Shown here piece by piece: positions 4,900 to 64,000 of a DNA stretch of 64,000 nt (position 1 is the first letter of the stretch; every line of letters starts with the position of its first letter). The DNA lies in NCBI GenBank assembly GCA_963790995.1, contig CAWBQQ010000002.1, forward strand, positions 94,547 through 158,546, given 5' to 3'. The DNA is from an uncultured Bacteroidota bacterium. Lineage in GTDB: Bacteria > Bacteroidota > Ignavibacteria > Kryptoniales > JAKASW01. The translations under genes were made by a program, and so were the position numbers. The notes beneath the pieces are model-generated. The model searched no databases. It saw only the letters and a list, made by a program, of their open reading frames with translations, and was not told where the DNA came from.

Positions 4900-5183
4900 A
4901 GAGCTTGAAACCCGTCAAACTCAAATGTCGGTTTCTCCCATTCGATCCGCAAATCGGAGACATGAGCAGAAATAGGACCGCGTCGTAATTCTTTTATGAG
5001 TTCTTCGACCAAACCTTCTTCACCTTCCGCTACTACTTCCACTCCGCCGTCAATGAGATTCTTAACAAAGCCTTTAAGACCGTAAGTGCCGGCCTTTCGA
5101 ATTGCAAAGAAGCGATAACCTACGCCTTGTACGAGACCACTGACGAATATATGTGCCCTAACATCAGCCATTTTGCTGCTCAA
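4896..5183 (-). CDS. acyP: Acylphosphatase
   Basis: The 95-aa product contains the [13 protein letters not shown] motif and has the typical acylphosphatase size. Confidence 0.85.
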
Positions 5184-9919: not shown

Positions 9920-10359
9920 GTCTTTCTCCAATTTGTAAATTAATGTAAGCAAAATATGCTCGAGTTTCAAGCCGTGAAAGCATTCCTGATCGATTGCGGC
10001 TAATGCCATGATTTGATTTTCGTTTCATAATAAAAAAATATAAACCGCAAAGTGCCGCCTTGCAGCATCCCCCCATTCTATATATTATCGATGATGAGCG
10101 GGAAACGCCACGATGCGCAAAGATTATTATTATTGAAAGAATACTTGGCGAGTCTTTGCGGTCTTGGCGGTTAAGAAAACCCTTTTGGGGTATCGCAGAA
10201 AGTTGAAATTGGGACTCTACCCAATTCCGAAATGGCTCGCCCATCCGGTTATGAGCGCCGCAATTCTGCTGACGCGTAATGATCCGCGAGCTGTTGCCAT
10301 GGGCCGTCAAGGTTCATGGAGTGGCTCCGGCGCCGATCAACGGAGCCGCGATTACTTGC

Positions 10360-11622
10360 TTACGAAGGGTCCACAACCTGTTCCACCTTACGTGCAGTGC
10401 CTGCCACCAAATCCGATTCGCGCAGCCTCGACGCCATAAAAAGGCCCACCAGAACCAGCCCGGTCATAACCAGGAGCGAAGGCGTCATCGAACCTTTCGG
10501 ACCGACTCTGAATGCGTCCATGCCGAATATAAATGCAATGCCGGAAATCTGTCCCATGAGAAGGAGCATGCCGTTTGAAGTTCCCTCGGGTGCAGGTCTG
10601 CCGATCTCCGCCCCATATTGGAAGCCAATGGGTCCGCAGCTTAAGAGGAAGAATCCCAGCGCGAAGCACGCCGCGTACAAAAGACCGCTTGTGGCGGCGT
10701 ACGTAATTGCGAGCAGCCCGGGAATTGTGCCCGCAAGACTGATAACGATAAAAGGAACCCTCTTGCGGTACTTGTCCGACAAAGTCGGAAGTATTACGGC
10801 GCCGACAATTCCGCCGAGTATCATCAAACCTCCTGCCGTGCCGGCCTGCGTCGCGGTGAAGCCGCGGGGACTGATGATGTCTTCGATCCATGTCGTCACG
10901 CTGTTGAAAACACCGAGTCCGATGAAGAAGATCGACATTAGAAAGATGAAATTCCTATTATGGAGAAGCTGTTTCATCCCGTCGAACATCAGGGCACGCT
11001 CTTCCAATTCGGCAGCTCCCGGGGGCGTTGCCGGATGTTCCCGGGCGAATACAATGAATATGATTCCCGCGGCGAGTGCACCGATGCCGTAATACAACAG
11101 CATGTTGTCGAATCCGGCAGAGATCACCAGGGCAGGCGTTACAGCCAGACCAGCGAGTATGCCGAGGTACATTGCCAGTGAGCCGAGACCGGATGCCGTG
11201 GCACGCTCTTCGATCGGGAACCAGCGCGCCGCAACTTTGGTCAAGGCGTTCAGGATAAACGGCTGCCCGACGGCCGTGCCTATTTGGGCGACCATGACAA
11301 GAGTAAAGTTCGATGCTACCATGCCGCGCATTAGGCCGAACGCGCCTGTCAGCCCTGCGCCTATCCCGACGGCGACACGGAAACCGTACGTGTCTATCAC
11401 CCATGATGCGGGGATCGACACGACCAAATACGCAATCATGAAGCTCATCGACAGGAGACCGATGTCCAACTGCGAAACGTGGTAGTATGCGGCGGCGGAC
11501 TCGGTCACCGGTGCAAACGTAATCCAGACAAGCTGATTAAATGCCGCAACCAGCATGAAAACCACGAGTATAAGCCACCTGTACCCGTAAATCTTGTAAG
11601 CAGATTTTTCCATGTAATTCAT
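10360..11622 (-). CDS. MFS transporter
   Basis: This is a 420-aa ORF with about 12 predicted hydrophobic segments, and its composition is typical of the major facilitator superfamily. The substrate is unknown. Confidence 0.7.
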   Translation of the reverse strand: MNYMEKSAYKIYGYRWLILVVFMLVAAFNQLVWITFAPVTESAAAYYHVSQLDIGLLSMSFMIAYLVVSIPASWVIDTYGFRVAVGIGAGLTGAFGLMRGMVASNFTLVMVAQIGTAVGQPFILNALTKVAARWFPIEERATASGLGSLAMYLGILAGLAVTPALVISAGFDNMLLYYGIGALAAGIIFIVFAREHPATPPGAAELEERALMFDGMKQLLHNRNFIFLMSIFFIGLGVFNSVTTWIEDIISPRGFTATQAGTAGGLMILGGIVGAVILPTLSDKYRKRVPFIVISLAGTIPGLLAITYAATSGLLYAACFALGFFLLSCGPIGFQYGAEIGRPAPEGTSNGMLLLMGQISGIAFIFGMDAFRVGPKGSMTPSLLVMTGLVLVGLFMASRLRESDLVAGTARKVEQVVDPS

Positions 11623-23779: not shown

Positions 23780-24052
23780 CTATTCAAACCTCAGCCGTAC
23801 CATTTTGATCGCCCCGAAGAAATTCAACACTCTCAGCGGAGTCAGAACCCTCTTGTCCCAATATTGTCCCAGGTCGATCCTCGAGTAATACCGAAACACA
23901 TCGACCACTTTTATCCGATCGCTCCACTCTTCAAACTCCTTCACCGGGCCGATTTCCCACCGGTGCGGAACGAATAATTCCGATTTCATCCTCCCTCCTT
24001 TGACCAGCTTGTATCTCAGCTTCAGCAGCCATCTTGAATACACGTCAAACAT
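23780..24052 (-). CDS. Hypothetical protein; the reading frame is open up to the IS3 boundary at 24088
   Basis: This is a 90-aa ORF. Its C-terminal part (RYYSRIDLGQYWDKRVLTP) is encoded by the 70-nt repeat that is also present at 53637-53704. I do not recognise a family. Confidence 0.3.
   Translation of the reverse strand: MFDVYSRWLLKLRYKLVKGGRMKSELFVPHRWEIGPVKEFEEWSDRIKVVDVFRYYSRIDLGQYWDKRVLTPLRVLNFFGAIKMVRLRFE
23824..23893. repeat. About 70-nt repeat, copy 1 (partner at 53637-53704)
   Basis: The sequence CTCAGCGGAGTCAGAACCCTCTTGTCCCAATATTGTCCCAGGTCGATCCTCGAGTAATACC is almost identical to the copy at 53.6 kb, with 3-4 mismatches by eye. Confidence 0.7.
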
Positions 24053-24133: not shown

Positions 24134-24970
24134 TCAGACATTGGCAACCTGAGACGGATAATAAGCTTCTGGAGCTGGGGGCCTGTAGCCGAGAGAGCTA
24201 TGAGGTCTGACAGTGTTGTAGTGGATTCTCCACTTTTCGATGACGACTTTTGCTTCCATGATTGTGTCAAACACCTCTCGATTAAGTAACTCATCTCTGA
24301 ACTTCCCATTGAACGATTCGATGTAACCGTTCTCCCATGGACTGCCGGGCTCGATGAAAGCTGTGGTGACACCCAGGTGATGGAGCCATCTCCGTAGAAG
24401 CTCAGCGACGAACTCAGGTCCGTTGTCCGAGCGTATGAACTGTGGCGTACCATAGGCGATGAATATATCAGACAATGTATCGATCACGTCATTGGCTTTG
24501 ATCTTTCTCTCCACTCGACTGGTAAGACATGTTCTCGTGTACTCGTCGATTATGTTCAGTATTCGTAGCGCTCTCCCGTCACTGGTTCTCTCCGCAACAA
24601 AATCATAGCTCCAGACATGGTTCTTGTGTTCTGGACGGAGTCTTTTGCACGATCCGTCGTTGAACCACAGTCGTCTCCGCTTTGGCTGTTTTTGTGGCAC
24701 TTTTAGCCCTTTCTGGCGCCATAGCCTTTCCACTCGCTTGTGGTTCACATGCCATCCTTCTGTTCTCAAGAGAACTGTTATTCGCCTGTATCCATATCGT
24801 CCATACTCGCTGGCGAGCTCCACCATTCGTTCTGTAAGCCGTTCTGTGGCTGCATCCAGCCTTGCCACCACTCTTTGTGTTGACCTTGGTTGTTCCACTA
24901 CCTTGCAGGCTCTGCGTTCGGACACTTGTACTATCTCCATAACTTCTTCCACCGCCCGGCGTTTCTTCAC
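24134..24970 (-). CDS. IS3-family transposase OrfB (DDE/rve integrase core), probably expressed as an OrfAB fusion by -1 frameshifting
   Basis: The 278-aa product contains HVWSYDFV..., IRSDNGPEF and ESFNGKFRDELLN, the rve-domain DDE motifs. The ORF lies in the -1 frame relative to orfA. Confidence 0.9.
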   Translation of the reverse strand: MKKRRAVEEVMEIVQVSERRACKVVEQPRSTQRVVARLDAATERLTERMVELASEYGRYGYRRITVLLRTEGWHVNHKRVERLWRQKGLKVPQKQPKRRRLWFNDGSCKRLRPEHKNHVWSYDFVAERTSDGRALRILNIIDEYTRTCLTSRVERKIKANDVIDTLSDIFIAYGTPQFIRSDNGPEFVAELLRRWLHHLGVTTAFIEPGSPWENGYIESFNGKFRDELLNREVFDTIMEAKVVIEKWRIHYNTVRPHSSLGYRPPAPEAYYPSQVANV

Positions 24971-24975
24971 CGGGC

Positions 24976-25254
24976 TCAGTAGTTTCCCCGTGCGGCTTCC
25001 TTCAGTATTGAGTTATCTATTGTCAGATCTGCTGCCACCTTCCGGAGACGCTGGTTCTCCTGCTCGAGCTCCTTGTACCGCTTTGCTTGATCCACCTGAA
25101 GTCCACCGTATTCCTTCCTCCACTTGTAATATGTTGCATCGCTGATCCCCAGTTGTCGGACTACCTCAGCCAGCGTTTGGCCTTTTGCCATCATGACTTC
25201 TGCTTCTCGCAGCTTTGCTACAATTGTTTCTACCGTGTGTCGCGGCTTTCCCAT
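24976..25254 (-). CDS. IS3-family transposase OrfA (HTH)
   Basis: The 92-aa product MGKPRHTVETIVAKLREAEVMMAKGQTLAEVVRQLGISDATYYKWRKEYGG plus a leucine-zipper-like tail is typical of IS3 OrfA. Confidence 0.9.
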   Translation of the reverse strand: MGKPRHTVETIVAKLREAEVMMAKGQTLAEVVRQLGISDATYYKWRKEYGGLQVDQAKRYKELEQENQRLRKVAADLTIDNSILKEAARGNY

Positions 25255-25325
25255 TGTCGTTTCTCCTTTGATCCATAATATACCTTTTTACTAAGTCTAT
25301 TTTGGATCACTTTTTGGGGGGCAGG

Positions 25326-25718
25326 TCATGTTCCGTGAGCTGTTACCCCTTCTTTTCTGGCTGCAATCGTCAGCGCCTTATCGCCACTTAGCAAGGTGAG
25401 TTCGCGACTCTTCGCAATCATCAGGGCAAACAGATCGTTTCTGGAAGGTTTACTGTGTTTTTTGCTGAGATCTTCTACAATATACATTTCACTTCCTGTG
25501 GTACCTGATGCAATGAAACCAGCGCTCGCAAATGTCGCCGCAGGTGGATCCTGAAGTTCCTCAGCCAGAATAACATCAGGCAACAAGAAATAATAAGGAA
25601 GCTTGACCGTTGCGTCGAGGATTCCGCCATTGAACAAGTCAATGGCTACGGAAGTATCAATAACTAACTTCTGCTTTTCCTCCGACAAGTTCGGCTCCCA
25701 TTTGTTTGCGGAATTCAT
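25326..25718 (-). CDS. PIN-domain protein (DUF3368-like), probably 3'-truncated; its stop codon is supplied by the IS3 terminus
   Basis: The sequences LVIDTSVAIDL...LPDVILAEEL...SRNDLFALMIAKSRELTLLSGDKALTIAARKEGVTAHGT follow the PIN pattern. The TGA stop at 25328-25326 is the first three bases of the IS inverted repeat TGACCTGC. Confidence 0.6.
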   Translation of the reverse strand: MNSANKWEPNLSEEKQKLVIDTSVAIDLFNGGILDATVKLPYYFLLPDVILAEELQDPPAATFASAGFIASGTTGSEMYIVEDLSKKHSKPSRNDLFALMIAKSRELTLLSGDKALTIAARKEGVTAHGT

Positions 25719-26734
25719 TCAGCGGTCTTCCAAGAAGTTCTGCGGCTCTTCCGGAAGAGATCAGATCTTCGCTGACAGCCTGCAGGATCAGTCTTTCGAA
25801 TTGTCTCGGCTCTTCCGGCGGTATCAGATCTCCAGGCTCTTGTGAAGTCCATCCTCTAGACCGAAAAGTTTTGAATAAAATTGCAGCACAGCTGTTAGTA
25901 ATTATTCCAAGGTCCTGTGCTCTGTACACCCACGCCTGCATGCTTAAGCCATACTTTTTCTTAAGCATTGAAAGCTCAAGCAATTCAATACGTCGGCGAT
26001 GTTCCCCTAACTCTCGACATGCGGCCTCAGCAGGAACAAGAAACGACGCGGCAAACCTGTGTGCTGCTTTCTCGGGGTCGAACGTTTTTAGAAACTCTCA
26101 ACAGGAGGTGACCGAGCTCGTGCGCGAGGTTGAATCGTTCCCTGTCTCCAGTTAAACCTTTCTTCACAACGACGACAGGTATTTTGCCATTGGCCCAGCA
26201 AGAAAGGCCATCGAAATCATCATCACCGTCGAGTAAGATGACCTTGACGCCCCTGTCTTCGAATACCTCAAGCACATTCTCGATCGGGTCGATACCAAGG
26301 TTCCATCGTTTACGGAGTCTAAGCGATGATTCTTCGGCATCTTGGATTTTACTTATCTGCCTTTCTGAAGCAGGTGGCATTGTAAACCTCCGGAACCTTT
26401 TAGGCGGATACAATGATTCGACAAAGAGGTACCTTTCCAAAAGCTCTTGAGTTTTGGCTTTCAACACTTGTAGCCCCTTTGCCGATGCACCACCTCGCTT
26501 GCGATAAGCGGGTTCACTCAGTTCAACTGCATGTTCCTGCTCCCGGAAGAAGAACTCCACTTTGACACCAAGCGCGCCTGCTAATCGAAGAAGCACATCA
26601 GACCCGGGCATCGAGGTGTCTTGTTCATACTTGTGGATAGCTTGCCTGGAAACATAGTTCTGGGTCCTTTCGGCAAGTTCTTCAAGGGAAAGACCAAGCG
26701 CGATTCTGCGCTGTTTTATCCGGTCTCCAACCAT
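25657..26734 (-). CDS. XRE-family HTH fused to an ImmA/IrrE-type zinc metallopeptidase domain, split by a +1 frame displacement near the T5/A5 run at 26085-26089
   Basis: ORF 26027-26734 carries the HTH (IKQRRIALGLSLEELAERTQNYVSRQAIHKYEQ) and the HELGHLLL zinc motif. The other frame continues with DPEKAAHRFAASFLVPAEAA...LSMLKKKYGLSMQAWVYRAQDLGII (ORF 25657-25983), which is the remainder of the ImmA/IrrE domain. Confidence 0.75.
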
Positions 26735-53636: not shown

Positions 53637-53704
53637 ACACGCTCAGCCAAGTCAGAACCCTCTTGTCCCGATATTGTCCCAGGTCGATCCTCGAGTAATA
53701 CCAA
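53637..53704. repeat. About 70-nt repeat, copy 2 (partner at 23824-23893)
   Basis: The sequence CTCAGCCAAGTCAGAACCCTCTTGTCCCGATATTGTCCCAGGTCGATCCTCGAGTAATACC matches the 23.8-kb copy in the same orientation. Confidence 0.7.
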
Positions 53705-54305: not shown

Positions 54306-54656
54306 GACGGTTCAACTGTCTTCTTCTTTTTCCTAAACTCTTTTTCGGGAAATCCGGTCGGAAGCTGTGTTTTACTCTGACGTTCCCGAGTGTGAGCGCA
54401 TTTGCGCCATGGCGTAAGGCGCCGCATCTATCGGGAACCCATGACGAGCGGGGGCAGTCCAAACGACCTCACCCTACCCTCTCCTTGGCAAGGAGAGGGA
54501 CACAGATCTTTTTCTCCATCCCAAGCTCCTGCTTGGGATGACCTCTGTTATGCGGGAAGTCAACTCTCGCACCGCGGAGAATCCAGACAGAGGTAAAAGC
54601 GGTCGTTAATCTGCGTTTCGCGAATCTGTGTGGTGTGTCAGCAGGGGCACATGTGA

Positions 54657-54820
54657 ACGTGCCGGTGTTTATCTGGTTCGGGCGCGACCCAACTGTATCT
54701 AACTTATTTTTTGTGTACCAGTGTTTCAATCCACGCGCCCGCGTGGGGCGCGACTCGTGTCTGCGTCCGCAAGGGTCGGATTGTCCGTGTTTCAATCCAC
54801 GCGCCCGCGTGGGGCGCGAC
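54657..54820 (-). CRISPR. Minimal type I-C CRISPR array: two intact 32-nt repeats, one degenerate terminal repeat, two 34-nt spacers
   Basis: The minus-strand repeat is GTCGCGCCCCACGCGGGCGCGTGGATTGAAAC, at 54789-54820 and 54723-54754. The spacers are at 54755-54788 and 54689-54722. The degenerate repeat at 54657-54688 retains only the GTCGCGCCC end. The repeat sequence and length fit the type I-C class, and the array lies downstream of cas2. Confidence 0.85.
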
Positions 54821-54959
54821 TGTATTACTTAAAATATCACAAATCACTCGATTTATCCAGAAAATACAACCTACGTTGCTTACCTCAAATTTGTCAAAGA
54901 ACATCTTGCCTCTATTATGCTGAAACAAGGTACTTCACTCATGCGCGCTTCGGTTAGCG
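54821..54959 (-). promoter_or_regulatory. Putative CRISPR leader
   Basis: This is an AT-rich 139-nt segment between the cas2 stop and the first repeat. The degenerate repeat is at the opposite end of the array, as expected for a leader-distal position. Confidence 0.45.
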
Positions 54960-55250
54960 TTACACAATAATCGGCTCTTCTATATCCGCTAAACCAGATT
55001 TCCCATGATGCTCAACCCGCCGCTTCCAGTTTGAACCCAAGAAATAGAACCTTAGGCTATCACTCTTCACATCGTACATCGATAGCAATTGATCCTTGAG
55101 ACTCTCCCATTGTGCGGGCTCGACGTTGCATTCGAAAACAGAATTCTGAACTCGTATTCCATAATCGACACAAGTCTCGGATATCTTCCGAAGCCGCCTT
55201 ACTCCCGCAGCTGTTGTCGTCGAAACATCGTAACTCACAAGAACCATCAT
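54960..55250 (-). CDS. cas2: CRISPR-associated endoribonuclease Cas2
   Basis: The product MMVLVSYDVSTTTAAGVRRLRKISETCVDYGIRVQNSVFEC is a canonical Cas2 N-terminus. The ORF-track start at 55280 (MPIEQAEVSY) is created by a REP-like unit. Confidence 0.9.
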   Translation of the reverse strand: MMVLVSYDVSTTTAAGVRRLRKISETCVDYGIRVQNSVFECNVEPAQWESLKDQLLSMYDVKSDSLRFYFLGSNWKRRVEHHGKSGLADIEEPIIV

Positions 55251-55265
55251 ATAAGACACCTCCGC

Positions 55266-55338
55266 TTGTTCGATAGGCATTCTTGCCTTTCATTAATCTC
55301 TATAAGAGGGACATTCAAGAATGAATGTCCGACAACAA
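55266..55338. repeat. REP-like hairpin pair (one type 1 unit plus one inverted type 2 unit) in the cas1-cas2 gap
   Basis: The units are TTGTTCGATAGGCATTCTTGCCTTTCATT (55266-55294) and GGGACATTCAAGAATGAATGTCCGACAACAA (55308-55338, opposite orientation). Confidence 0.8.
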
Positions 55339-55351
55339 TAATTGTCACCTT

Positions 55352-56458
55352 TCATTTCATATAAAACGGCGGATATTCTTGAATATCTCCGCGGATGTAC
55401 CTTGCCATTAGCTGAGCTTGAATATGCGGCAAGAGCCCAATAGTCATCTTCTCGCCAAGAAAAGGGTGCGTGATCTCTTCCTGCTTTCGCTTCTGATAGG
55501 CAGTGAGCACTTTCTTCCGTGCCTCATCTGACATTCTCACTTCTCCCGATTCACGAATCTCAAAATCTTTCTTCGTGACCTGCTTCAGGTTAATCAGATT
55601 CAGCATAATACGATCTCCTAAATACGCTCGAAACTCCTCCATGATGTCAAGGGCAAGACTTGGTCTTCCGGATCTCAGCTGGTGAAGAAAGCCAACCTGA
55701 GGATCAAGCCCCGTCGTTTCAACTGCCGATCTAACATCATTCGCAAGAATCGCATATAGAAACGAAAGCAGCGCATTTGCGGGGTCGAGCGGCGGCCGCT
55801 TCGAGCGGGCAGTGAATTCAAATTCCTCAACGACTATTAAAGATGACAGCACTCCGAAATACATCGCGGCACACTCGCCTTCGTAGCCACGAAGCTCATC
55901 AAGAGTCTCTGCCTCTTGAATGTCAGGTAAACGACCGCCCATCGCGGCTGCAACGGATTCCACTGCTCCTGAGGATTCTTCGTCGGGTATCCTCCCTAGC
56001 TCTTCAATTGATTCTTCAGTTGGACAAACATTCCTGTTTGTCCCATTCTTGTCTGTCCCTAATTCCGGATGATTCCTCTGGTGACGGAGCAGAAGGTTTC
56101 TATAGTTTGCCACCTTCGCCGCAATAATGGGACGCGCAATTGATAACGAGCATGGTTCACTGTCCGCCGTTGCATACTGTGCCTTCCGAAGCAATACGTT
56201 TCCCTGCTGAGCACCAGAGACATGGGCGAGGAACTTTCCATTCTCCGACAGATAACTAATTCCGACATTATTCTCCGCACAGAACGCCATAAGAGCAGGT
56301 GAAAGAGCTTTGAAGCCGAAACAGACAATATTTTCAATCGAATGAACCGGCGCCTGAAATACTCTCTTGTTGTCTACTTCAACAACAAACGTTTCTCTTT
56401 CTTTGTGGACATAGGCATCATCAGAGGTAATGTAAAGATTGTTGAGATGTTTTTTCAT
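55352..56458 (-). CDS. cas1: CRISPR-associated endonuclease Cas1 (type I-C), with a REP-derived in-frame insertion
   Basis: The sequences MKKHLNNLYITSDDAYVHKERETFVV, RGYEGECAAMYFG, NALLSFLYAIL and GLDPQVGFLHQLRSGRPSLALDIMEEFR follow the Cas1 pattern. The ORF-track start at 56485 (MSVEQ) lies inside a REP unit. Confidence 0.9.
   Translation of the reverse strand: MKKHLNNLYITSDDAYVHKERETFVVEVDNKRVFQAPVHSIENIVCFGFKALSPALMAFCAENNVGISYLSENGKFLAHVSGAQQGNVLLRKAQYATADSEPCSLSIARPIIAAKVANYRNLLLRHQRNHPELGTDKNGTNRNVCPTEESIEELGRIPDEESSGAVESVAAAMGGRLPDIQEAETLDELRGYEGECAAMYFGVLSSLIVVEEFEFTARSKRPPLDPANALLSFLYAILANDVRSAVETTGLDPQVGFLHQLRSGRPSLALDIMEEFRAYLGDRIMLNLINLKQVTKKDFEIRESGEVRMSDEARKKVLTAYQKRKQEEITHPFLGEKMTIGLLPHIQAQLMARYIRGDIQEYPPFYMK
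56019..56058. repeat. REP-like hairpin unit plus a half unit inside the cas1 coding sequence
   Basis: The sequence is GTTGGACAAACATTCCTGTTTGTCC followed by CATTCTTGTCTGTCC. It encodes GTDKNGTNRNVCPT in the cas1 frame. Confidence 0.7.
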
Positions 56459-56470
56459 ATTTCTTTCAGA

Positions 56471-56560
56471 TTGTTCGACAGACATTCTTGTCTGTCATTG
56501 GCATTCCTGCCTGCCATCGGTACTCCTGCTCAAGTTCGACAGACATTCTTGTCTGTCATC
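56471..56560. repeat. REP-like hairpins (two full units and one partial) filling the cas4-cas1 gap
   Basis: The full units are TTGTTCGACAGACATTCTTGTCTGTCATT (56471-56499) and AAGTTCGACAGACATTCTTGTCTGTCATC (56532-56560, overlapping the cas4 stop). The partial unit is GGCATTCCTGCCTGCC. Confidence 0.85.
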
Positions 56561-57269
56561 AAGACAAATACAAATTCTTCAAATAGTTCTTAAGCTTTCT
56601 TTCATTCATAGCCTTCGGCATACACACCGGCTCCAGCGAACAATTCCGGCACTTTGCCGAATACTCTGCGGCCGGCGTTCGCTTGTTTGCTATCAACTCA
56701 CGAACTTGCGCAATGATCTCTTCCGTCTGATTACGCAGATCACTGTCAATCTCGACCCGCACACGCCGTCGGATCTTTCCATAGAAGAATGCACCATGGG
56801 TCACCTGAATATTCATCATTTCTCCCAGGCAGAGTGCTTGTGCACAAAGCTGTACTTTGTCGCTGATATCGTCCTTCGGCTCACCTGACTTAAACTCCAC
56901 CGGGACAATCAAGAATGATTGTCCGACATTTTTCTCATCTTGTGCTTGTTCGAAAGGCATTCGCTCTTGTTCGACAGACATTCTTGTCTGTCTAAAGAAT
57001 TCCACCACATCACATCTTCCTGAAATCCCAAGTCGAAACGAATGAACCTTTAGCCCTCGCACAGTCTTTATCGACCCGCGAGACTCATAAGTATCAGTAT
57101 CCACCTTCTCATGCATTATATCGCCCCGTACAGTAAACACATTTTCATGCCATACATCCTCGACGTGTATCAGGGCGCACTGCCGCGGACAATAGACATA
57201 ATGCTGCAACGCACTTATCTGAAAGAAATCGTCTTCAGTGTACGGCGTCGATGGACTTGATTCAATCAT
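56559..57269 (-). CDS. cas4: CRISPR-associated exonuclease Cas4 (type I-C) carrying an in-frame triple REP insertion
   Basis: The sequences ISALQHYVYCPRQCALIHVEDVWHEN, GRCDVVEF, PVEFKSGEPK, VQLCAQALCL and C-terminal CRNCSL..C form the RecB-nuclease/4Fe-4S pattern of Cas4. Confidence 0.9.
   Translation of the reverse strand: MIESSPSTPYTEDDFFQISALQHYVYCPRQCALIHVEDVWHENVFTVRGDIMHEKVDTDTYESRGSIKTVRGLKVHSFRLGISGRCDVVEFFRQTRMSVEQERMPFEQAQDEKNVGQSFLIVPVEFKSGEPKDDISDKVQLCAQALCLGEMMNIQVTHGAFFYGKIRRRVRVEIDSDLRNQTEEIIAQVRELIANKRTPAAEYSAKCRNCSLEPVCMPKAMNERKLKNYLKNLYLS
56902..56993. repeat. Three REP-like units inside the cas4 coding sequence
   Basis: The units are GGGACAATCAAGAATGATTGTCCGACATT (56902-56930, type 2), CTTGTTCGAAAGGCATTCGCTCTT (56945-56968, degenerate) and TTGTTCGACAGACATTCTTGTCTGTCT (56967-56993). 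Confidence 0.8.
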
Positions 57270-57292
57270 TAATCATACCGTAATTTACCTCC

Positions 57293-57517
57293 ATGGAAAG
57301 GGAAGATAAGATAAACTTTCGCGTTGAATTTGAACAGGAAGAGGACGGACGGTGGATCGCTGAAGTCGTCGATATACCGGGTGTACTTGCATACGGAAAG
57401 TCGCAAGAAGAAGCGATGTTGAAGGCGCAAGCGCTCGCCCTGCGTGTCCTTGCCGAGAGAATCGATATAGGCGAGGTTTCCGCGATGCCACTTACGATTT
57501 CCTTCCTCGCTGCATGA
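57293..57517 (+). CDS. hicB: HicB-family antitoxin-like protein (UPF0150)
   Basis: The 74-aa product contains FRVEFEQEEDGRWIAEVVDIPGVLAYGKSQEEAMLKAQALA, typical of the HicB N-domain. Its stop overlaps the hicA start by 4 nt. Confidence 0.7.
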   Translation: MEREDKINFRVEFEQEEDGRWIAEVVDIPGVLAYGKSQEEAMLKAQALALRVLAERIDIGEVSAMPLTISFLAA

Positions 57518-57729
57518 GGCAGTGGTCCTCTCAGAAAGCCCGCCGTGTGCTCGCCGCTCTGCTTCGCACTGGTTGGACGATCAAGCGCGAGACTGCAGGT
57601 TCCCACAAAATTCTCTCCCGTCCAGGTTGGACAGATTACGTTTTTAGTTTTCACGATGCAGAAGAAATTGGTCCGAAGATGCTTGCCCGAATCGCCAAAC
57701 ACACGGGCTTGAAGCCGGAAGATCTGTAA
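57514..57729 (+). CDS. hicA: HicA-family mRNA interferase toxin (YcfA-like)
   Basis: The 71-aa product contains KARRVLAALLRTGWTIKRETAGSHKIL...FHDAEEIGPKMLARIAKHTGLKPEDL, the HicA pattern with the catalytic GSH. Confidence 0.7.
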   Translation: MRQWSSQKARRVLAALLRTGWTIKRETAGSHKILSRPGWTDYVFSFHDAEEIGPKMLARIAKHTGLKPEDL

Positions 57730-57744
57730 CAACGGATGCTCCTG

Positions 57745-57856
57745 TCTTTTTCCATTCATGCTCGACATCAGTAAATCGATGCTGCCGCGGACAAATACAC
57801 ATATAATGTTGCAGAGCGCTTATTTGAAAAAAATCGCCTTCAGTGTACACGCACTC
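57745..57856 (-). pseudogene. Duplicated, diverged 5' fragment of cas4
   Basis: The minus-strand translation VYTEGDFFQISALQHYMCICPRQHRFTDVEHEW parallels cas4 residues PYTEDDFFQISALQHYVYCPRQCALIHVEDVWHEN. The DNA similarity to 57140-57245 is visible by eye. Confidence 0.7.
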
Positions 57857-57858
57857 TC

Positions 57859-57887
57859 CAGTTCGACGGGCATTTTTGCCTGTCATT
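57859..57887. repeat. REP-like hairpin immediately 3' of the RAYT-like gene
   Basis: The unit is CAGTTCGACGGGCATTTTTGCCTGTCATT. Confidence 0.75.
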
Positions 57888-57893
57888 AGATAA

Positions 57894-58346
57894 TTATTCT
57901 TCTTCATTCAAATACCATCCCACATACTTCTCCGGCTCTTCTGTCAGTTCTTTCTTCACCGGATTATTGTACATATAGTTTAGCTCATTCTTGAACTCGA
58001 CATCATTACGCACTATTCGATCATACGACTCATCCTGCCAGACTTGCCCTCCGGTTCCTCTGTGCAAATTGATCTTATGCGCCGAGACACCTTTCATTCC
58101 ATGCATAACGCGGCTGAGAGTTACGCTTTCATTCGGCTGAATGAGAAGGTGGGCATGATCCGGCATCACCATGGCGGCATAGCAATGATAGAAAGCTCCA
58201 TTCCCTTCCTTGATATGTTCTAAGACGATACGTTGTTCCTCTTCGTCAAAAAATATTCCTCTTGCAGCATGGAGCGTAACAAAATAAACGGATCCTTCGA
58301 GAGTCCAATGCGGCAGATGCCGCCGTGTAATTCTCAATTCAACCAT
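57894..58346 (-). CDS. REP-associated tyrosine transposase-like protein (RAYT; IS200/IS605-type HUH Y1 transposase fold)
   Basis: This is a 150-aa ORF. It has the N-terminus RRHLPHWTLEGSVYFVT, the HUH motif in MVMPDHAHLLIQP, and the Tyr region VWQDESYDRIVRNDVEFKNELNYMYNNPVKKEL, as in RAYT/TnpA-REP proteins. Confidence 0.75.
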   Translation of the reverse strand: MVELRITRRHLPHWTLEGSVYFVTLHAARGIFFDEEEQRIVLEHIKEGNGAFYHCYAAMVMPDHAHLLIQPNESVTLSRVMHGMKGVSAHKINLHRGTGGQVWQDESYDRIVRNDVEFKNELNYMYNNPVKKELTEEPEKYVGWYLNEEE

Positions 58347-58358
58347 AATCTTTCAATG

Positions 58359-58577
58359 TTGTTCGACCGACATTCTTGTCGGTCATTCACATTCCTGCAT
58401 CCTGCTCGACAGGCATTCCTGCGTGTCATTCAAGCAATAAGGGGACACTCAAGAATGAGTGTCCGACAACAAATGAATGTCTGACAAGTGAGTGTCCGAC
58501 AGTGATTCAATTCGACAAACAATCGTGTCTTGTTCGACAAACGCGCTAGCGTTCGACAGACATTCTTGTCTGTCAGT
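58359..58577. repeat. Dense cluster of about 8 REP-like units (both orientations, full and partial) between the RAYT-like gene and cas7
   Basis: Full and near-full units are at 58359-58387 (GACCGAC/GTCGGTC stem), 58402-58430, 58441-58472 (type 2, GGACACTC/GAGTGTCC) and 58549-58577 (consensus unit). Half units are at 58473-58502, and degenerate units at 58508-58546. Confidence 0.85.
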
Positions 58578-58578
58578 T

Positions 58579-59424
58579 CTACAATTTCTCTTCTATCGAA
58601 ACGCCATTCGGAAGTTTGTCTCTTTCAATAGAAACTTCATAATCATTCCACGCACGCGGGAGCACAACCTCCTTTTTCTTTTCAACCTTCACTCGCTCGA
58701 AGAGTTCTCCTGCTCTTGCATTGCCAAGATGGCTTTCGTGTTTGAATACGATGAGCTTTCTTGGATTCATTTCTCCACGCGCCGCAGAGCGATCATGCTC
58801 AAAAGCATTCACTAATGCTTCCCACAACAAACTCAAATCGTCTTCGGAGAAACCAGTCTTTGCCGCATCAACTGCCGAGACAAATCCGTGCATCCTGTAA
58901 AGACCATATGGGACAGTAGATTTCCTGCCTATGGTTGATGCAAATTCCCTCTTTTCTTGCTTTTTCGCTTCCTCTTCAGTCGCAACCGCTTGGCGCGTAA
59001 TAGAGTGCTCAGCTTGATAAACGCGGTCTTCAGAACGAGAAAATGTAAACTGTACAGGACCACGAACAGTACCTGCATTGTTCTCGCCTGTACTTAATAC
59101 AGCACCGAATGTCCGGATATCCCAGTAGCTTTTGCACAGATCAACCTGACGATCGTGTGGGGTCTTTCCCTTTGCTTTTTCTATGATATTATTCAAGATG
59201 TTTCCCTGACGAATGAAGATTTCAGGTCCATCTTCATTCCCCTGTGATTTCACTTCAACATAGTTCCGCACTTTGCGTTTGATGCAGACATCAGTCACCA
59301 ATCCCTCCTGATTCTCTGCATCGACGCGCGGAAGGTTGTCCTGATCAGGATCACCATTGGGATTTCCGTCCTTCACATCGAATAGGAATACAAAATCATA
59401 ACGGTTTTTAATTGTGGTTGCCAT
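58579..59424 (-). CDS. cas7: Type I-C Cas7 (Csd2)
   Basis: The product MATTIKNRYDFVFLFDVKDGNPNGDPDQDNLPRVDAENQEGLVTDVCIKRKVRNY is the canonical Csd2 N-terminus. GAGGAG lies upstream of the ATG at 59424. The ORF-track start at 59547 overlaps cas8c. Confidence 0.9.
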   Translation of the reverse strand: MATTIKNRYDFVFLFDVKDGNPNGDPDQDNLPRVDAENQEGLVTDVCIKRKVRNYVEVKSQGNEDGPEIFIRQGNILNNIIEKAKGKTPHDRQVDLCKSYWDIRTFGAVLSTGENNAGTVRGPVQFTFSRSEDRVYQAEHSITRQAVATEEEAKKQEKREFASTIGRKSTVPYGLYRMHGFVSAVDAAKTGFSEDDLSLLWEALVNAFEHDRSAARGEMNPRKLIVFKHESHLGNARAGELFERVKVEKKKEVVLPRAWNDYEVSIERDKLPNGVSIEEKL

Positions 59425-59428
59425 GGTA

Positions 59429-61210
59429 TTACTCCTCTTTATTACTTGATTTAGTTGAAAAATCTTTTTGCCGTTGGTGATAATACCCGATCGCAAAACT
59501 TGCCTGGTCTTCGAGTGAAAATACAGTCGGGAAGCGAGTGCCTTCAACTTTCGACATCAGTTCCTGCAATTTCTTGTCAAGATTTATTGCAAGCCCTGGC
59601 TTTTCTCCCTGAATCTTCGACAAGTGATGCTGAGTCAGCTTCATCAATCTTCCAAATGCAGTTGACGGCATTGTGGAGGCGAATGAAAAGAATCGTTCGC
59701 GGATACCTGCATTTAGATTGCCACCCGAAGCATGATATTGAATTGATTCGAGGACGGCAAAAATCTTTCCGCAGGTATATGCCGTATTTTCACCTGTTCC
59801 ATCCTGTTCAGACATAAGTTTACTCCTTTCGATTGGATTGTTTTTTCGTTTTAGATATAAGTTCAGAAGAGCAATGCGTTCAGCCGTCGCATTTCCCTGT
59901 GCTGCTCGAATTCTATTCAAGACAGCACTCAACAACCAGAGCGGCGGTGGTTGTCCCGTGACGGCACATTTCCAAAGCACCGCGCCAATTCTCCCGTATT
60001 GAACATCATTCGTGCTTTTGCTTTTCGCAGATTTAACCAATTCCCAGAAACGTGGATATTGTTTCACAAGTTTTTCGTGGTCTGGATCATACCGCTCAAT
60101 TTCGATGTCCCTAAACCACTTCGCCAAATTCGTCTGAAGATCTTTGAGACTTGTCACTATCCAATCTCGCACAGCAATTCGGGCCGCTGTCCCACTAAGC
60201 GTTATTGCGTAGAATGTGTCTCGCTCGATTTTAGTCGCAGATGTCTTGTGACCATCGTAAACAGAGTCGAACATTGCACGAACGGCGTCTTCGGTAGGGT
60301 TGTCGAGAATATCAAGAAGAGATGCCTCGGTGGATTTCCGAAGCCAGAAGACTACAGCGGTATCATCTGAAATATTCCTACGGTTCTTATAGATAAATAT
60401 CTCTTTGCCTTTATCATTAAGTTTTGAGGTACCGTTAGAAAGAAGCCAATTTAAAGCATCCACATAGGCACGCGCACATCTTGCGCAAACAGAAGAATTC
60501 TCATTTCCTCTTAAGCCATAGGATTCTGTTGCATTGAAGTTGTATGAGATGAGCGCGCAACCGGATGTTTGTCCGGCAGGCACGCGCTTGATCATCCCAT
60601 GTGGAAAATCGACAACGGGGAAAGACGACAACCCGCAAATCGAGCATTTGTCAAAACGACTGCTTTTCAATCTTACTTCTGACTCTTCTTCGAATCTACC
60701 AATTATAGCTTCGTAGATTGGATTTTGCTCATGGATTCGTTTTGCACCATTAGTTAAAAGAAACCCGATGTTCCCACTTCTTTCTTTTTCCGTGACCTCG
60801 CTTCCAAAAGCATGCAACGCTTTTTCAACACCGTTCTTTCTATTGGACTCATAAAATGAGAGAATAGGAGACAACCCCTTTACGTCTCTGTATTCATTTA
60901 GCTTATCGCGAAATAACTTATGTTTGAATTCAACTTGTTGCTTTGACTTTTCTCGTTTTTTCTTGTCCTTCTCTTTTTCATCGAAGAATCCCAGCACCTC
61001 TTCAGGTTTATCCACAAGAAGGCGAGCTTTCCCCTTTTTTGCAGTGATTCTCTCTGCCAACGTTTGCTGTTTATCATGCGCAATAAATTTCTTAAAGTTT
61101 CCTTTTTGATCGATTACACAATCGATGGACACTGGGACGTAATCGAGAGCATCGTGGGATAATTTTCCTTTCGGAAGTCTCCCTGAAAGTTCTACTAGTT
61201 CTTGAATCAT
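59429..61210 (-). CDS. cas8c: Type I-C large subunit Cas8c (Csd1)
   Basis: This is a 593-aa ORF positioned between cas5 and cas7 with 4-nt overlap coupling to cas5. Its size and N-terminus (MIQELVELSGRLPKG...) fit Csd1. Confidence 0.8.
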   Translation of the reverse strand: MIQELVELSGRLPKGKLSHDALDYVPVSIDCVIDQKGNFKKFIAHDKQQTLAERITAKKGKARLLVDKPEEVLGFFDEKEKDKKKREKSKQQVEFKHKLFRDKLNEYRDVKGLSPILSFYESNRKNGVEKALHAFGSEVTEKERSGNIGFLLTNGAKRIHEQNPIYEAIIGRFEEESEVRLKSSRFDKCSICGLSSFPVVDFPHGMIKRVPAGQTSGCALISYNFNATESYGLRGNENSSVCARCARAYVDALNWLLSNGTSKLNDKGKEIFIYKNRRNISDDTAVVFWLRKSTEASLLDILDNPTEDAVRAMFDSVYDGHKTSATKIERDTFYAITLSGTAARIAVRDWIVTSLKDLQTNLAKWFRDIEIERYDPDHEKLVKQYPRFWELVKSAKSKSTNDVQYGRIGAVLWKCAVTGQPPPLWLLSAVLNRIRAAQGNATAERIALLNLYLKRKNNPIERSKLMSEQDGTGENTAYTCGKIFAVLESIQYHASGGNLNAGIRERFFSFASTMPSTAFGRLMKLTQHHLSKIQGEKPGLAINLDKKLQELMSKVEGTRFPTVFSLEDQASFAIGYYHQRQKDFSTKSSNKEE

Positions 61211-61923
61211 GGCACTTCCTCCTCCGAAGACTCCTCCGCAAGATTGAATTCATGAATAAGTTGTCTAGGATACTCTGCAATTTCCTTGCGCGGATGTGAG
61301 CTTGAAAGTATTTGTTCGCCGTAGTCTTTGCTGCAATCCAACACCCCTTGCTTCACTGCAACATCGTAGAAAAACTTCGGCGTTGGAACGCCCTTCTCAT
61401 CGTACCACATATCAAGGAACATACTGCCAACAGGAATGTCTTCCGTAATAGATTTGTCGTTTTCATCAGGCAGAGAGAACTCTGCGGCAAATTCTCTTGT
61501 CCCAAGATATGGTCTGCGCCAACATTGACCTTTCCGCGCGCGACGATTAAACATTTCCATGTATTTCCTGGTAGGGTTTTTCACGGGTGAAGTCGCCTCG
61601 TGGACGGCCGCCTCGATGATATAAGCAACATCTTTCAGGATGATGCTATTGCGTTGTGCACGATCTTCTTCAACAATGATTGGCATCTTGCCCTGCTTCT
61701 TATTGATCTCATTTCTCTTTACAGAATAAAATTTCACAGGCTTGAGTACGAGGATGCGTTGCATATGCCACGCGAACTCGGGTTTCCAGAGAACACTATC
61801 CAGAATGCCACGCGCTGCCGATGGAGTCATGCAAGGATATGTCATGCGCTCAACTTTCAGATCGGGACGCGTAAAGCACGCAAACTCTCCCCACACTTTA
61901 AGTCTTACAGTATTGTCGTACAT
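61207..61923 (-). CDS. cas5: Type I-C Cas5 (Cas5d, pre-crRNA endoribonuclease)
   Basis: The sequence RLKVWGEFACFTRPDLKVERMTYPCMTPSAARGILDSVLWKPEF is the Cas5d signature. Confidence 0.9.
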   Translation of the reverse strand: MYDNTVRLKVWGEFACFTRPDLKVERMTYPCMTPSAARGILDSVLWKPEFAWHMQRILVLKPVKFYSVKRNEINKKQGKMPIIVEEDRAQRNSIILKDVAYIIEAAVHEATSPVKNPTRKYMEMFNRRARKGQCWRRPYLGTREFAAEFSLPDENDKSITEDIPVGSMFLDMWYDEKGVPTPKFFYDVAVKQGVLDCSKDYGEQILSSSHPRKEIAEYPRQLIHEFNLAEESSEEEVP

Positions 61924-61950
61924 ATTTTGTCCTTTCTATTTCAAAAATAT

Positions 61951-61980
61951 CCAGTCGGTCAGACATTCTTGTCTGACCAG
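61951..61980. repeat. REP-like hairpin in the cas3-cas5 gap
   Basis: The unit is CCAGTCGGTCAGACATTCTTGTCTGACCAG, with an 8-bp stem (GGTCAGAC/GTCTGACC) and an ATTCTT loop. Confidence 0.8.
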
Positions 61981-61991
61981 ATACAACTCTT

Positions 61992-63606
61992 CTAAAAGAC
62001 TGTCTCAACGTCTTCAGGCGCAATGCCAAGCTTTTGGTCATATTTGCCATGCCAAACTCTCAGAACATCTTTGATGTTTTCGATCTGTTTCTCGTTATTC
62101 CTCAGAAAATTCCGATATACCTGCACGCTGAATTGCTGAATTCTCCGATACTGTTCACGAGTGACAAACCCGCGGAAGATTAGCGACTCAGTGACTTCGT
62201 TCAGCAATGCTTTGCTCTCCTCGGAATAATCGGGGATGAATAAAGGTACAGTTGGACTTTCAATAATCTTATATTGCTCGCTGACGGTCTTGAAATTGAA
62301 ATCCTTCCGCTCCGCGGTGATATTGTATTTGTCAGCATCGACCAGCAATGCGACTCGTTTGTAATAGCCATGAAATGAGTCAATGTGATAAAGGAAATCC
62401 AGATCGTCCTTGATCAAGACTTCTGTCAAGCCTGCACAGGCCTCGTAAGTCCTATCTGGGAATCTCTGTTTCTCTAATTTGAAGATGACAACCTTGCCTT
62501 TCGCTTCGCCGGGATCACCGTTTCGGTTACATCTTCCAGCAGATTGGATCAACGCATCGAGAGGTGCCATGGCCCGATAAACGATTGGAAAATCTAAATC
62601 AACACCAGCTTCCACTAATTGTGTCGATACCACAGATATTCGCGTTTTATCCTTAAGATCTCGAACAATACATGAAATGATCTTCTTTCGATGATGAGGA
62701 CACATAGCTGTGGACAAATGATAATGTTCGTGGTATCCTTTGAAACTCGATATCCTTCCAAACAGCTCCATGGCAACAGATTTTGTATTGGCAATAACCA
62801 GAAAAGATTTTTTCTCTCTGGAAAGTTTCTCTTCCACAATGTCCATGGCACTCGGCTCGAGTTTGTTCAGCAATTTATAGTCCACACGCCGAGTGGAATC
62901 AAAATATATCTTCGAGTTTCTGATCAGCGGTCGGATTCTTTCGATCCCATCGAAGCCTTCACGCTTTTCAAATGCTGGCAATGTAGCCGTGCAGAACAAG
63001 AAACTGGTATTGGCAAGTGTATTGATGTTCTTCAGCATTATGACCGTGGGCTCCGCAATGTGTTTCGGCAAGGTCTGAATCTCGTCGAAGATTACTACGG
63101 ACTCGGAGATGTTATGATTTTTCCGACATTTGGACGATCTGTTGCTAAACAAAGATTCGAAGAACTGAACCGAAGTCGTTACAATGATCGGCGCATCCCA
63201 ATTTTCGCAAGCGAGGCGCTTTGCAAACGCGACGCTTTTGTCGAATTCTTCCTTGGCATATTGTTCATCATCGTCTATTATTCCAGAATGATGTTCCAGT
63301 ACAATGTTTTCACCAAAGATGTCTTTCAAAATCGATGCGGTTTGGTCAATGATATTGATATAGGGAAGAACAATGATGATCCGTTTCAAATGATTGTGCT
63401 TAGCATGGCGCAACGCCCAATACATTGACGTTAGAGTTTTTCCCAGTCCGGTCGGCAACTGAAGAGAGAAGAAACCATGCACTTCGTTTGCAGATCCCGT
63501 CACTTCAATTCTTGCTTTTGTTCGAAGTTCATTTATTATACCATCGGTTGGAAGTTGCTTGAATACTTCTTCGAGTTTGTCAAGCAAGCGTTCACATAAG
63601 CGGTCT
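61992..63606 (-). pseudogene. cas3: cas3 (helicase part only); 5' HD-nuclease region missing at the IS3 junction
   Basis: The helicase motifs are present: LQLPTGLGKTLTS (I), VIFDEIQTLP (II), FCTATLP (III) and QSAGRCNR (VI). Only about 45 residues precede motif I. The frame stays open (QDRLCER-LLDKLEE) right up to the IS end at 63607. Confidence 0.8.
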
Positions 63607-64000
63607 TGACCTGCCCCCCAAAAAGTGATCCAAAATAGACTTAGTAAAAAGGTATATTATGGATCAAAGGAGAAACGACAATGGGAAAGCCGCGACACAC
63701 GGTAGAAACAATTGTAGCAAAGCTGCGAGAAGCAGAAGTCATGATGGCAAAAGGCCAAACGCTGGCTGAGGTAGTCCGACAACTGGGGATCAGCGATGCA
63801 ACATATTACAAGTGGAGGAAGGAATACGGTGGACTTCAGGTGGATCAAGCAAAGCGGTACAAGGAGCTCGAGCAGGAGAACCAGCGTCTCCGGAAGGTGG
63901 TAGCAGATCTGACAATAGATAACTCAATACTGAAGGAAGCCGCACGGGGAAACTACTGAGCCCGGTGAAGAAACGCCGGGCGGTGGAAGAAGTTATGGAG
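63607..64000 (+). mobile_element. IS3-family insertion sequence, second copy (partial, continues beyond the window), inverted relative to copy 1
   Basis: The element starts TGACCTGCCCCCCAAAAAGTGATCC, identical to the 25328 end of copy 1. Its orfA differs from copy 1 by one residue (A to V). Confidence 0.9.
63681..63959 (+). CDS. IS3-family transposase OrfA (copy 2)
   Basis: This is a 92-aa ORF with 91 of 92 residues identical to the 24976-25254 product. orfB begins at GTG 63965 and runs off the window. Confidence 0.9.
   Translation: MGKPRHTVETIVAKLREAEVMMAKGQTLAEVVRQLGISDATYYKWRKEYGGLQVDQAKRYKELEQENQRLRKVVADLTIDNSILKEAARGNY

Follow-up and report, generated by a model that had tools for sequence, protein, structure and literature searches.

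Repetitive extragenic palindromic (REP) elements and the REP-associated tyrosine transposases (RAYTs) are usually seen as genome-wide, vertically inherited passengers, and the classical REP families comprise hundreds of dispersed copies. To our knowledge, no benefit to the host has been established for them. Known systems of this kind reportedly include yafM/TnpA_REP of Escherichia coli and the RAYTs of Pseudomonas and Stenotrophomonas, in work said to be that of Nunvar in 2010, of Bertels and Rainey in 2011 and of Ton-Hoang and Messing in 2012, and the definition of the REPtron is reportedly also credited to Nunvar in 2010. In the DNA considered here, a 64-kb stretch of contig CAWBQQ010000002.1 from an uncultured Bacteroidota bacterium (the window, always taken at its full length), a family of short hairpins is found in a type I-C CRISPR-Cas operon that also contains a RAYT gene. 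A REPtron is a RAYT gene flanked by its cognate REPs, and GTAG REPs, REPtrons, REPs just past stop codons and intragenic REPs have all been described (Di Nocera 2013, PMC3733652). The hairpins of the window are probably REP elements, partly paired as REP doublets forming hairpins (REPINs), that are the partners of this RAYT, the whole being a REPtron nested in the I-C operon. The element is of a known kind; its setting in a cas operon and the recurrence of that setting are apparently new, and a full-text search, of incomplete coverage, found no description of a RAYT or of REPs resident in cas operons.

In several respects the locus resembles the REPtrons already known. Its HUH/Y1 protein of ~150 amino acids (aa) has the HxH and YxxNP motifs and passes the REP_Tyr_transpos model, short tagged palindromes with covarying stems, some of them in inverted doublets, stand on both sides of the gene, units lie just past stop codons, and in most relatives the core is accompanied by GTAG or GTGG tags. 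In contrast to those systems, the tag in the window is GTTC or GTCG, the copies are few and belong to one operon instead of being dispersed, and the RAYT gene lies within a cas operon, shares its orientation and is probably transcribed with it, a setting that recurs in several RAYT clades.

The assignment of the enzyme draws on several lines of evidence. It scores 89.1 bits against the NCBIfam model REP_Tyr_transpos (NF047646, cut-off 80), fails the IS200 model (26 bits vs a cut-off of 55) and matches Pfam Y1_Tnp. Its motifs read DHAH (HxH) and YMYNNP (YxxNP) and align with those of E. coli TnpArep (4ER8), its sole solved relative by sequence, and of its homologues, about 110 in this analysis, several are named RayT by the Joint Genome Institute. 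REPs flank the gene on both sides, as a single unit at its 3' end and as a cluster at its 5' end, and the same holds in L007, L132, L133, L140 and L141 (numbers with L denote loci that were compared, numbers with P homologues of the RAYT; loci related to the window carry the label Candidatus Kryptoniota). The cas-embedded RAYTs are 82-89% identical to one another, and a ratio of nonsynonymous to synonymous substitution rates (dN/dS) of 0.09-0.14 at dS 0.4-1.1 indicates that the RAYT has long been kept functional. The RAYT coding sequence itself contains a weak REP-like hairpin, TTTAGCT-CATTCTTG-AACTCGA (window 57979-58000), which is conserved in the orthologues of L007 (~337-358) and L132 (~10347-10368) and may simply reflect a conserved peptide.

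The extent of the hairpin family was established with a covariance model (CM; R1) built from it and run with filters off across all 64 kb. The model finds 13 full units with scores of 36.8-48.5 bits (E <= 5e-8), all within 55265-61984 (Table 1), and no unit in the 57 kb outside this interval, the next best score in the window being 15 bits. Partial units at ~56044, 56502, 56940, 58390 and 58472-58545 bring the total to ~20. Further, the core 20-mer with up to three mismatches has 7 matches in the window where 0.01 are expected, and a scan for stem-ATTCTT-stem found the family only between 55271 and 61978. An earlier note on this DNA had counted at least 17 copies, listed seven variants of the stem and, by eye, seen no copy in the other ~57 kb. 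Each of its copies is present at the position it gave or within a few bases, the seven variants all occur and are fully complementary, and both its count and its concentration of the family in one place agree with the model.

The same note had also placed units in every intergenic gap of the operon, which needs qualification. Units do lie at gene junctions and 9 of the 13 full units are intergenic, but the clusters at 56016-56063 and 56897-56999 are inside cas1 and cas4, where the other four full units stand in frame, and at cas5|cas8c and cas8c|cas7 the genes of the window overlap or abut, with no gap and no unit. Three pairs form inverted doublets, namely 55265(+)/55303(-), which is REPIN-like, 58401(+)/58437(-) and 56897(-)/56966(+). 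The pattern of a bacterial interspersed mosaic element is absent from the cas7-RAYT cluster, which reads + + - (partials) + with irregular spacing and includes the partial units at 58390 and 58472-58545 as well as the repeat families D1, D4 and D6. One unit of the cas1|cas2 gap overlaps the start of the longest cas2 open reading frame (ORF), the unit at 56470-56520 gives the cas1 ORF an upstream in-frame ATG, and a unit identical to that at cas3|cas5 occupies the same junction in L132.

The stems comprise 7-9 bp and the loops 4-6 nt, and the units fold as DNA hairpins at -7.5 to -9.6 kcal/mol with z from -3.9 to -7.8 (for the unit at 55303-55336, -8.2 kcal/mol and z = -7.8). The paired differences between stems had been read in the earlier note as selection on a hairpin, and this holds on a set of units chosen without regard to the stem. 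To avoid circularity, units were picked by the loop octamer CATTC[CT]TG alone, with no stem criterion, which gave 66 distinct sequences, drawn from those parts of the window and of 12 related loci that bear REPs. Paired cells make up 84.3% of this set, vs 66.2% with shuffled partners and 29-38% with the partner slid by 1-3 columns; cells changed on both sides number 86 (26 shuffled, 10-29 slid), and the covariation score is 0.437 (0.145 shuffled, 0.08-0.13 slid). None of 500 shuffles reached the observed covariation values, and double-sided changes occur in seven of the eight stem pairs. Five further occurrences of the octamer elsewhere in the window, in which just 0-4 of the 7 flanking pairs form, can be set aside as noise. 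The covariation thus shows a hairpin under constraint.

Several other identities for the repeats were considered and rejected. A known RNA family was ruled out by an Rfam search of 54-63 kb (E <= 1), which gave no match on the hairpins. A CRISPR-like or cr-like repeat was likewise ruled out, the units having no similarity to the CRISPR repeat of the locus; the I-C repeat is confined to 54721 and 54787, and at the array the Rfam family CRISPR-DR9 remains sub-threshold (22.4 bits vs a gathering score of 45). Promoter or terminator identity was rejected with consensus matches at chance level: terminator-like matches number 10 vs 8.0 +/- 3.3 in shuffled sequence, T tracts are absent from the hairpins, and a weak T tail is found on only one sense-strand unit.

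An RNA function bears on a first alternative, in which the host keeps the hairpins as elements punctuating a polycistronic cas transcript and the REP/RAYT system is their source only. The hairpins would shield the upstream parts of the transcript against 3' exonucleases, or reduce read-through, and in this way set the relative levels of Cas proteins. In operons of E. coli and Salmonella, REPs stabilise upstream mRNA. Many REPs have been argued to act as RNA (Di Nocera 2013, PMC3733652). The placing of units at gene junctions, some of them one base past a stop codon, fits such a role, as do the REP doublets at cas3|cas5 and cas8c|cas7 in a second lineage (L140, L141). However, the complete I-C operons L133 and L137 are without units at these two junctions, REP positions vary between close relatives, four full units fall within coding sequence, the same clusters surround RAYTs that have no cas neighbours, and the terminator and Rfam results just given also speak against it, so that punctuation appears improbable as the reason for which the hairpins are there.

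The nested REPtron is embedded in a locus whose features are collected in Table 1. All its genes except hicAB are on the minus strand, and an identical locus is present in a contig of the metagenome-assembled genome GCA_052145895.1 (L001). Its membership of type I-C follows from the genes cas3-cas5-cas8c-cas7-cas4-cas1-cas2 and an array with the I-C repeat, though cas3 and the array are reduced. The assignment of hicB is based on a weak HicB-like_2 gene call, a 74-aa neighbour in L001.

Table 1. Genes, residual array and REP units of the type I-C cas locus (window coordinates)
Feature	Position	Strand	Basis or score
Residual I-C CRISPR array, two repeats and one spacer	54721..54821	-	Repeat search
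cas2	54960..55280	-	Pfam CRISPR_Cas2; true start likely nearer 55250
REP unit, type 1, one stem mismatch, cas1|cas2 gap	55265..55298	+	CM 44.3 bits
REP unit, type 2, stem GGACATTC/GAATGTCC	55303..55336	-	CM 43.3 bits
cas1 (type I-C), 368 aa, REP-derived linker insertion	55352..56458	-	Pfam Cas_Cas1
REP unit GGACAAAC/GTTTGTCC and overlapping half unit, inside cas1	56016..56063	+	CM 38.8 bits
REP unit and GGCATTCCTGCC half unit, cas4|cas1 gap	56470..56520	+	CM 48.5 bits
REP unit, begins one base past cas4 stop codon	56531..56564	+	CM 44.5 bits
cas4, 236 aa, REP-derived loop; Cys and RecB motifs intact	56559..57269	-	TIGR00372, 127 bits
REP unit, type 2, inside cas4	56897..56930	-	CM 40.8 bits
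Degenerate REP unit inside cas4	~56936-56965		Within cluster 56897..56999
REP unit, type 1, inside cas4	56966..56999	+	CM 43.6 bits
hicB-hicA toxin-antitoxin cassette, between RAYT and cas4	57293..57729	+	Pfam HicA_toxin
REP unit directly 3' of RAYT gene	57858..57891	+	CM 37.8 bits
RAYT (TnpA_REP, HUH/Y1 transposase), 150 aa, same orientation as cas genes	57894..58346	-	NCBIfam REP_Tyr_transpos
REP cluster, cas7-RAYT interval	58358..58581	mixed	58358(+), 58401(+), 58437(-), 58548(+): CM 43.9, 36.8, 42.5, 40.5 bits
cas7 (Csd2)	58579..59424	-	Pfam Cas_Cas7; gene call in L001
cas8c (Csd1)	59429..61210	-	Pfam Cas_Csd1
cas5 (Cas5d)	61207..61923	-	Pfam Cas_Cas5d
REP unit GGTCAGAC/GTCTGACC, cas3|cas5 gap	61951..61984	+	CM 39.1 bits
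cas3, helicase part only, HD nuclease domain gone	61992..63587	-	TIGR01587 cas3_core only
End of second IS3-family copy interrupting cas3, runs off window	63607..64000	-	99.7% identical, inverted, to 24935-25328

The comparison with related loci shows what the repeats are concentrated around. In this RAYT lineage REPs lie within about 1-4 kb of the RAYT, whatever its neighbours. In the housekeeping locus L135 (queA-ispD-RAYT, followed by a gene for a tetratricopeptide repeat (TPR) protein), six hairpins are at most ~1 kb from the RAYT and none is in the other 18 kb of the 19.8-kb locus, and in L142 and L143, again housekeeping contexts, REPs occur only beside the RAYT. Where the RAYT is in a cas operon, the picture is similar: L133/L134 have an intact I-C operon with the RAYT between cas7 and cas4 and REPs only around it; L132, the closest relative of the window, has about ten REPs, all in the operon, at positions that are not the same as in the window; and in L140 and L141, with the RAYT between cas4 and cas1, REP doublets flank the RAYT and fill cas8c|cas7 (in L140 cas3|cas5 also), with no REP outside the operon at E <= 0.01. 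Over six I-C loci, ~46 REPs were found at this threshold in ~52 kb of operon and none in ~97 kb of flank, the flank of L140 containing a single 17-bit match (E 0.016). The concentration is organised around the RAYT gene, and this gene happens to lie in the operon. The clustering that the earlier note had tied to the cas operon is real, but its centre is the RAYT, and equivalent clusters surround RAYTs in housekeeping contexts.

The presence of the element varies between otherwise matching loci. In the orthologous loci L133 and L137 the flanking genes agree and the DNA is 86-90% identical, but the segment with the RAYT and REPs, 693 bp long in L133, corresponds in L137 to 38 bp with one degenerate hairpin; the RAYT has therefore either been inserted in L133 or deleted from L137.

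The units that entered genes are of particular interest. The Cas1 of the window has 28 extra residues after HQRNHP, in frame, of which the unit at 56016-56063 encodes a part. The insertion is missing from the 87%-identical Cas1 of L005 and from the usual Cas1c of 342 aa, close relatives have 5-23 extra residues at the same point, and the site falls in the unaligned inter-domain linker of the solved I-C Cas1 8D3L. In Cas4, the loop that separates the catalytic D (DVVEF) from ExK (PVEFK) is encoded by three REP units, both in the window and in L139/L011, and the Cys and RecB motifs remain intact; the Cas4 of L133 and L137 (208 aa) is without the loop, and L132, L138 and L005 have other loop sequences of varying length. 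The palindromic elements of Rickettsia provide a precedent for intragenic palindromes. As in these and in the intragenic GTAG/CGTC REPs (Di Nocera 2013, PMC3733652), in-frame units add peptide where the protein tolerates it, and its other parts stay conserved; unlike there, the hosts are the Cas1 linker and the Cas4 D-ExK loop, and among close relatives the insertions are 0-28 aa and 0-41 aa long, respectively.

Taken together, these observations are best accommodated by a REPtron that would be nested within the operon, with the effector genes (cas3-cas5-cas8c-cas7) on one side of it and the adaptation genes (cas4-cas1-cas2) on the other. By analogy with E. coli TnpA_REP, the HUH/Y1 enzyme would recognise each unit as a single-stranded DNA (ssDNA) hairpin with a short 5' tag, and would cleave and rejoin at the tag, seeding new copies. 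Since such an enzyme would read the stem as a shape, only paired substitutions would be permitted, giving the compensatory pattern. Copies sit where they are tolerated: between genes they come directly past stop codons, and within genes they are in-frame additions to the Cas1 linker and the Cas4 loop. The operon and its resident REPtron may be inherited and exchanged as one block, and REPs would fill the operon but not its flanks because the two would travel together. Any effect of the hairpins on the stability of cas mRNA or on relative expression would then be a by-product.

Some observations sit less easily with a nested REPtron. The tag in the window is GTTC (type 1) or GTCG (type 2), with only GT retained in the alignment, and not the GT[AG]G of REPs, while relatives and most metagenome copies have GTAG, GTGG or GGAG. 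L139/L011 have no RAYT within 21 kb and yet contain four REPs, in cas4, cas1 and cas1|cas2; since no RAYT is near, these would have been inherited or made in trans. The dispersal of classical families is absent, no copy lying outside the operon within the window, and spread governed by distance only would also place copies in the gaps just outside the operon, where none is seen. RAYTs at two positions of I-C operons, and a REP cluster that abuts cas3 in L106, are not predicted by passive nesting alone. Finally, for the cleavage and transposition of the units that the RAYT may carry out, the support is the E. coli precedent.

The recurrence of the setting deserves attention in its own right. 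RAYTs of at least two clades are found inside I-C operons, at cas7|cas4 (window, L007, L132, L133/L134) and at cas4|cas1 (L140, L141). A third RAYT clade is probably also linked to type I-C, as the RAYT MBI5464415 and the Cas1 MBI5464419 have accessions 4 apart on a 3.3-kb contig. L140 and L141 were picked because their RAYT and Cas1 matches were on contigs of equal length, and P0013 and P0014 because their contigs agreed in length with those of Cas1 matches, and they are therefore a biased, non-random sample. The three RAYT homologues sampled regardless of Cas1, P0008, P0043 and P0046, are all in housekeeping contexts, as are P0007 and L081, and in a neighbour-joining tree the cas-embedded RAYTs are interleaved with housekeeping ones.

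Two further arrangements were seen beside cas genes. In L106, the dense REP cluster at 4526-4940 lies 1.3 kb from a housekeeping RAYT (queA-ispD-RAYT-TPR), on its downstream side, and runs into the start codon of an I-C cas3; the orthologous L135 has no cas genes there. In L005 (2528-3145) and L138 (8161-8778), an unrelated Y1 transposase of 205 aa is encoded directly upstream of cas4. It has NHYH and YIHLNP motifs, is 30% identical to the RAYT of the window and falls below the cut-off of the RAYT model, and its gene has flanking hairpins of its own, of the GAAGG...CTTC type; the effector modules of the two loci differ.

It could be proposed, as a second alternative, that the RAYT lineage is functionally tied to type I-C or that the element specifically targets I-C operons, an ssDNA-hairpin nuclease or REP-REP recombination serving spacer acquisition, module exchange or the integration of cas islands. 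The clades and positions just listed favour this idea, together with the Y1 transposase that L005 and L138 have at this same junction, the start of the L106 cas3 right after a REP cluster, the co-orientation of all cas-embedded RAYTs with the cas genes, their purifying selection, and the arrays of 6-32 repeats that RAYT-bearing loci keep. Moreover, among the window, L007 and L133 the RAYT is conserved but the effector modules that surround it share only ~25-34% identity. The window Cas1 is 83-89% identical to those of close relatives. A conserved adaptation block is unremarkable in itself, however, because Cas1c is ~75-80% identical even across phyla. Defence islands are sinks for mobile elements, and the locus of the window also holds an IS3 copy and hicAB. 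RAYT presence is polymorphic between the orthologous L133 and L137, L139 has no RAYT, the RAYTs sampled regardless of Cas1, with P0007 and L081, are all housekeeping, and P0013 and P0014, like L140 and L141, come from a biased sample; a functional tie is accordingly held to be unlikely. A related candidate, a RAYT-cas4-cas1-cas2 cassette moving between effector modules, is weakened by the same identity of Cas1c across phyla, and also by L133, where REPs surround the RAYT only and the far end of the block has none.

A somewhat broader proposal, which we put forward tentatively and consider doubtful, is that I-C operons are the preferred or ancestral home of a RAYT/REPIN lineage of Kryptoniota, Ignavibacteriota and Bacteroidota. 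The element might target or recombine with the operons via its REPs, promoting module exchange and cas-island integration, or an ssDNA-hairpin nuclease might have been drawn into cas function or regulation, these two versions together being as doubtful as the proposal itself. If true, a transposase that is supposedly domesticated and passed on vertically would be in a partnership with adaptive immunity of a kind not described before. A specific association of whatever form would connect the modular evolution or the control of CRISPR-Cas with REP recombination or with HUH enzymes that process hairpins. In any case, a RAYT and its REPs persist in an immunity operon under purifying selection while the neighbouring effectors diverge to ~30% identity. 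If the relation is one of nesting only, the locus offers a clean natural example of locally confined REP spread and of a REPtron that a defence island takes from genome to genome, and the sites in Cas1 and Cas4 that tolerate 20-40 extra residues could be of use in protein engineering.

Other mobile systems provide further points of reference. With IS200/IS605 elements the window element shares the enzyme superfamily and the logic of ssDNA-hairpin recognition, but instead of two defined ends, left and right, it has many short units, and tnpB is absent. With casposons, Tn7-like CRISPR-associated transposons and cr-like repeats it shares the embedding of a mobile-element enzyme and DNA sites in a CRISPR-Cas locus; unlike in those, there is no sign of Cas serving the element or of the reverse, the repeats of the window are unrelated to the CRISPR repeat, and presence is polymorphic.

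Beyond cas loci, a metagenome scan with the bare core GACAGRCATTCTTGYCTGTC gave matches in at least 120 contigs, so that the 20-nt REP core occurs over 35-72% guanine-cytosine content. Among the matches listed, GTAG, GTGG or GGAG precedes most copies, and a RAYT or Cas3 match is nearby in only 2 of 120 core loci; the core being widespread outside cas loci, the REP family is not cas-specific. The tagged pattern GTTCGACNNNCATTCTTGNNNGTC was scanned in one genome per species. In three Kryptoniota-type genomes it matched in cas loci only, which agrees with the local concentration seen in the window, and in a Tepidisphaeraceae genome it occurs on three contigs on which no cas genes were detected. 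A viral origin was considered and rejected, IMG/VR containing no relative of the RAYT and only 7 scattered core matches. In the metagenome contigs L012-L131 the core is conserved unusually widely for a REP sequence, and it also forms tandem arrays there, with periods of 58 nt and ~104 nt (L028, L072).

A last alternative is that the repeats merely mark a dying cas locus, in which selection is relaxed and junk accumulates, as the earlier note had also suggested. For the window, signs of decay are evident. The cas3 ORF is without the HD domain that is present in the Cas3 of relatives (720-833 aa), the domain having been lost to an IS3 insertion: 20 nt upstream of the truncated ORF begins an inverted, 99.7% identical copy of the orfA end of the IS3-family element that lies in full at ~24134-25328, with orfA (HTH_Tnp_1) and orfB (rve). 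The array consists of two perfect I-C repeats with one spacer and a degenerate third repeat near 54655-54690. hicAB and a duplicated cas4 fragment have been inserted, and in L132 the gene calls of cas8c and cas1 are split. Decay is not a general explanation, however, because relatives with the RAYT and/or REPs keep arrays of 6-32 repeats (24 in L140, 6 in L141, 32 in L132 and 31 in L138). No other cas ORF of the window is damaged, the units inserted in cas1 and cas4 preserve frame and catalytic motifs, and L133, L140 and L141, with RAYT and REPs, have full-length cas gene calls except for a short cas2 (69 aa) in L141. The small sample compared here points to REP-bearing loci being about as intact and spacer-rich as REP-free relatives. 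As the origin of the repeats, decay thus seems highly improbable, and the nested REPtron remains the favoured account.

Some minor observations concern the surroundings of these features. The duplicated cas4 5' fragment at ~57730-57850 (repeat family D8) adjoins the hicB-hicA cassette, 57803-57848 being 85% identical to 57198-57243; the same layout of hicB-hicA and cas4 fragment occurs in L007, and in L138 hicAB lies beside the different Y1 gene. A 66-bp direct repeat with 94% identity links 53637-53702, just after a NIPSNAP-like gene, with 23827-23892, beside the IS3 element. The latter also adjoins a gene at 26027-26734 with HTH_3 and Peptidase_M78 domains (ImmA/IrrE-type), which hints at a mobile-element or prophage remnant.

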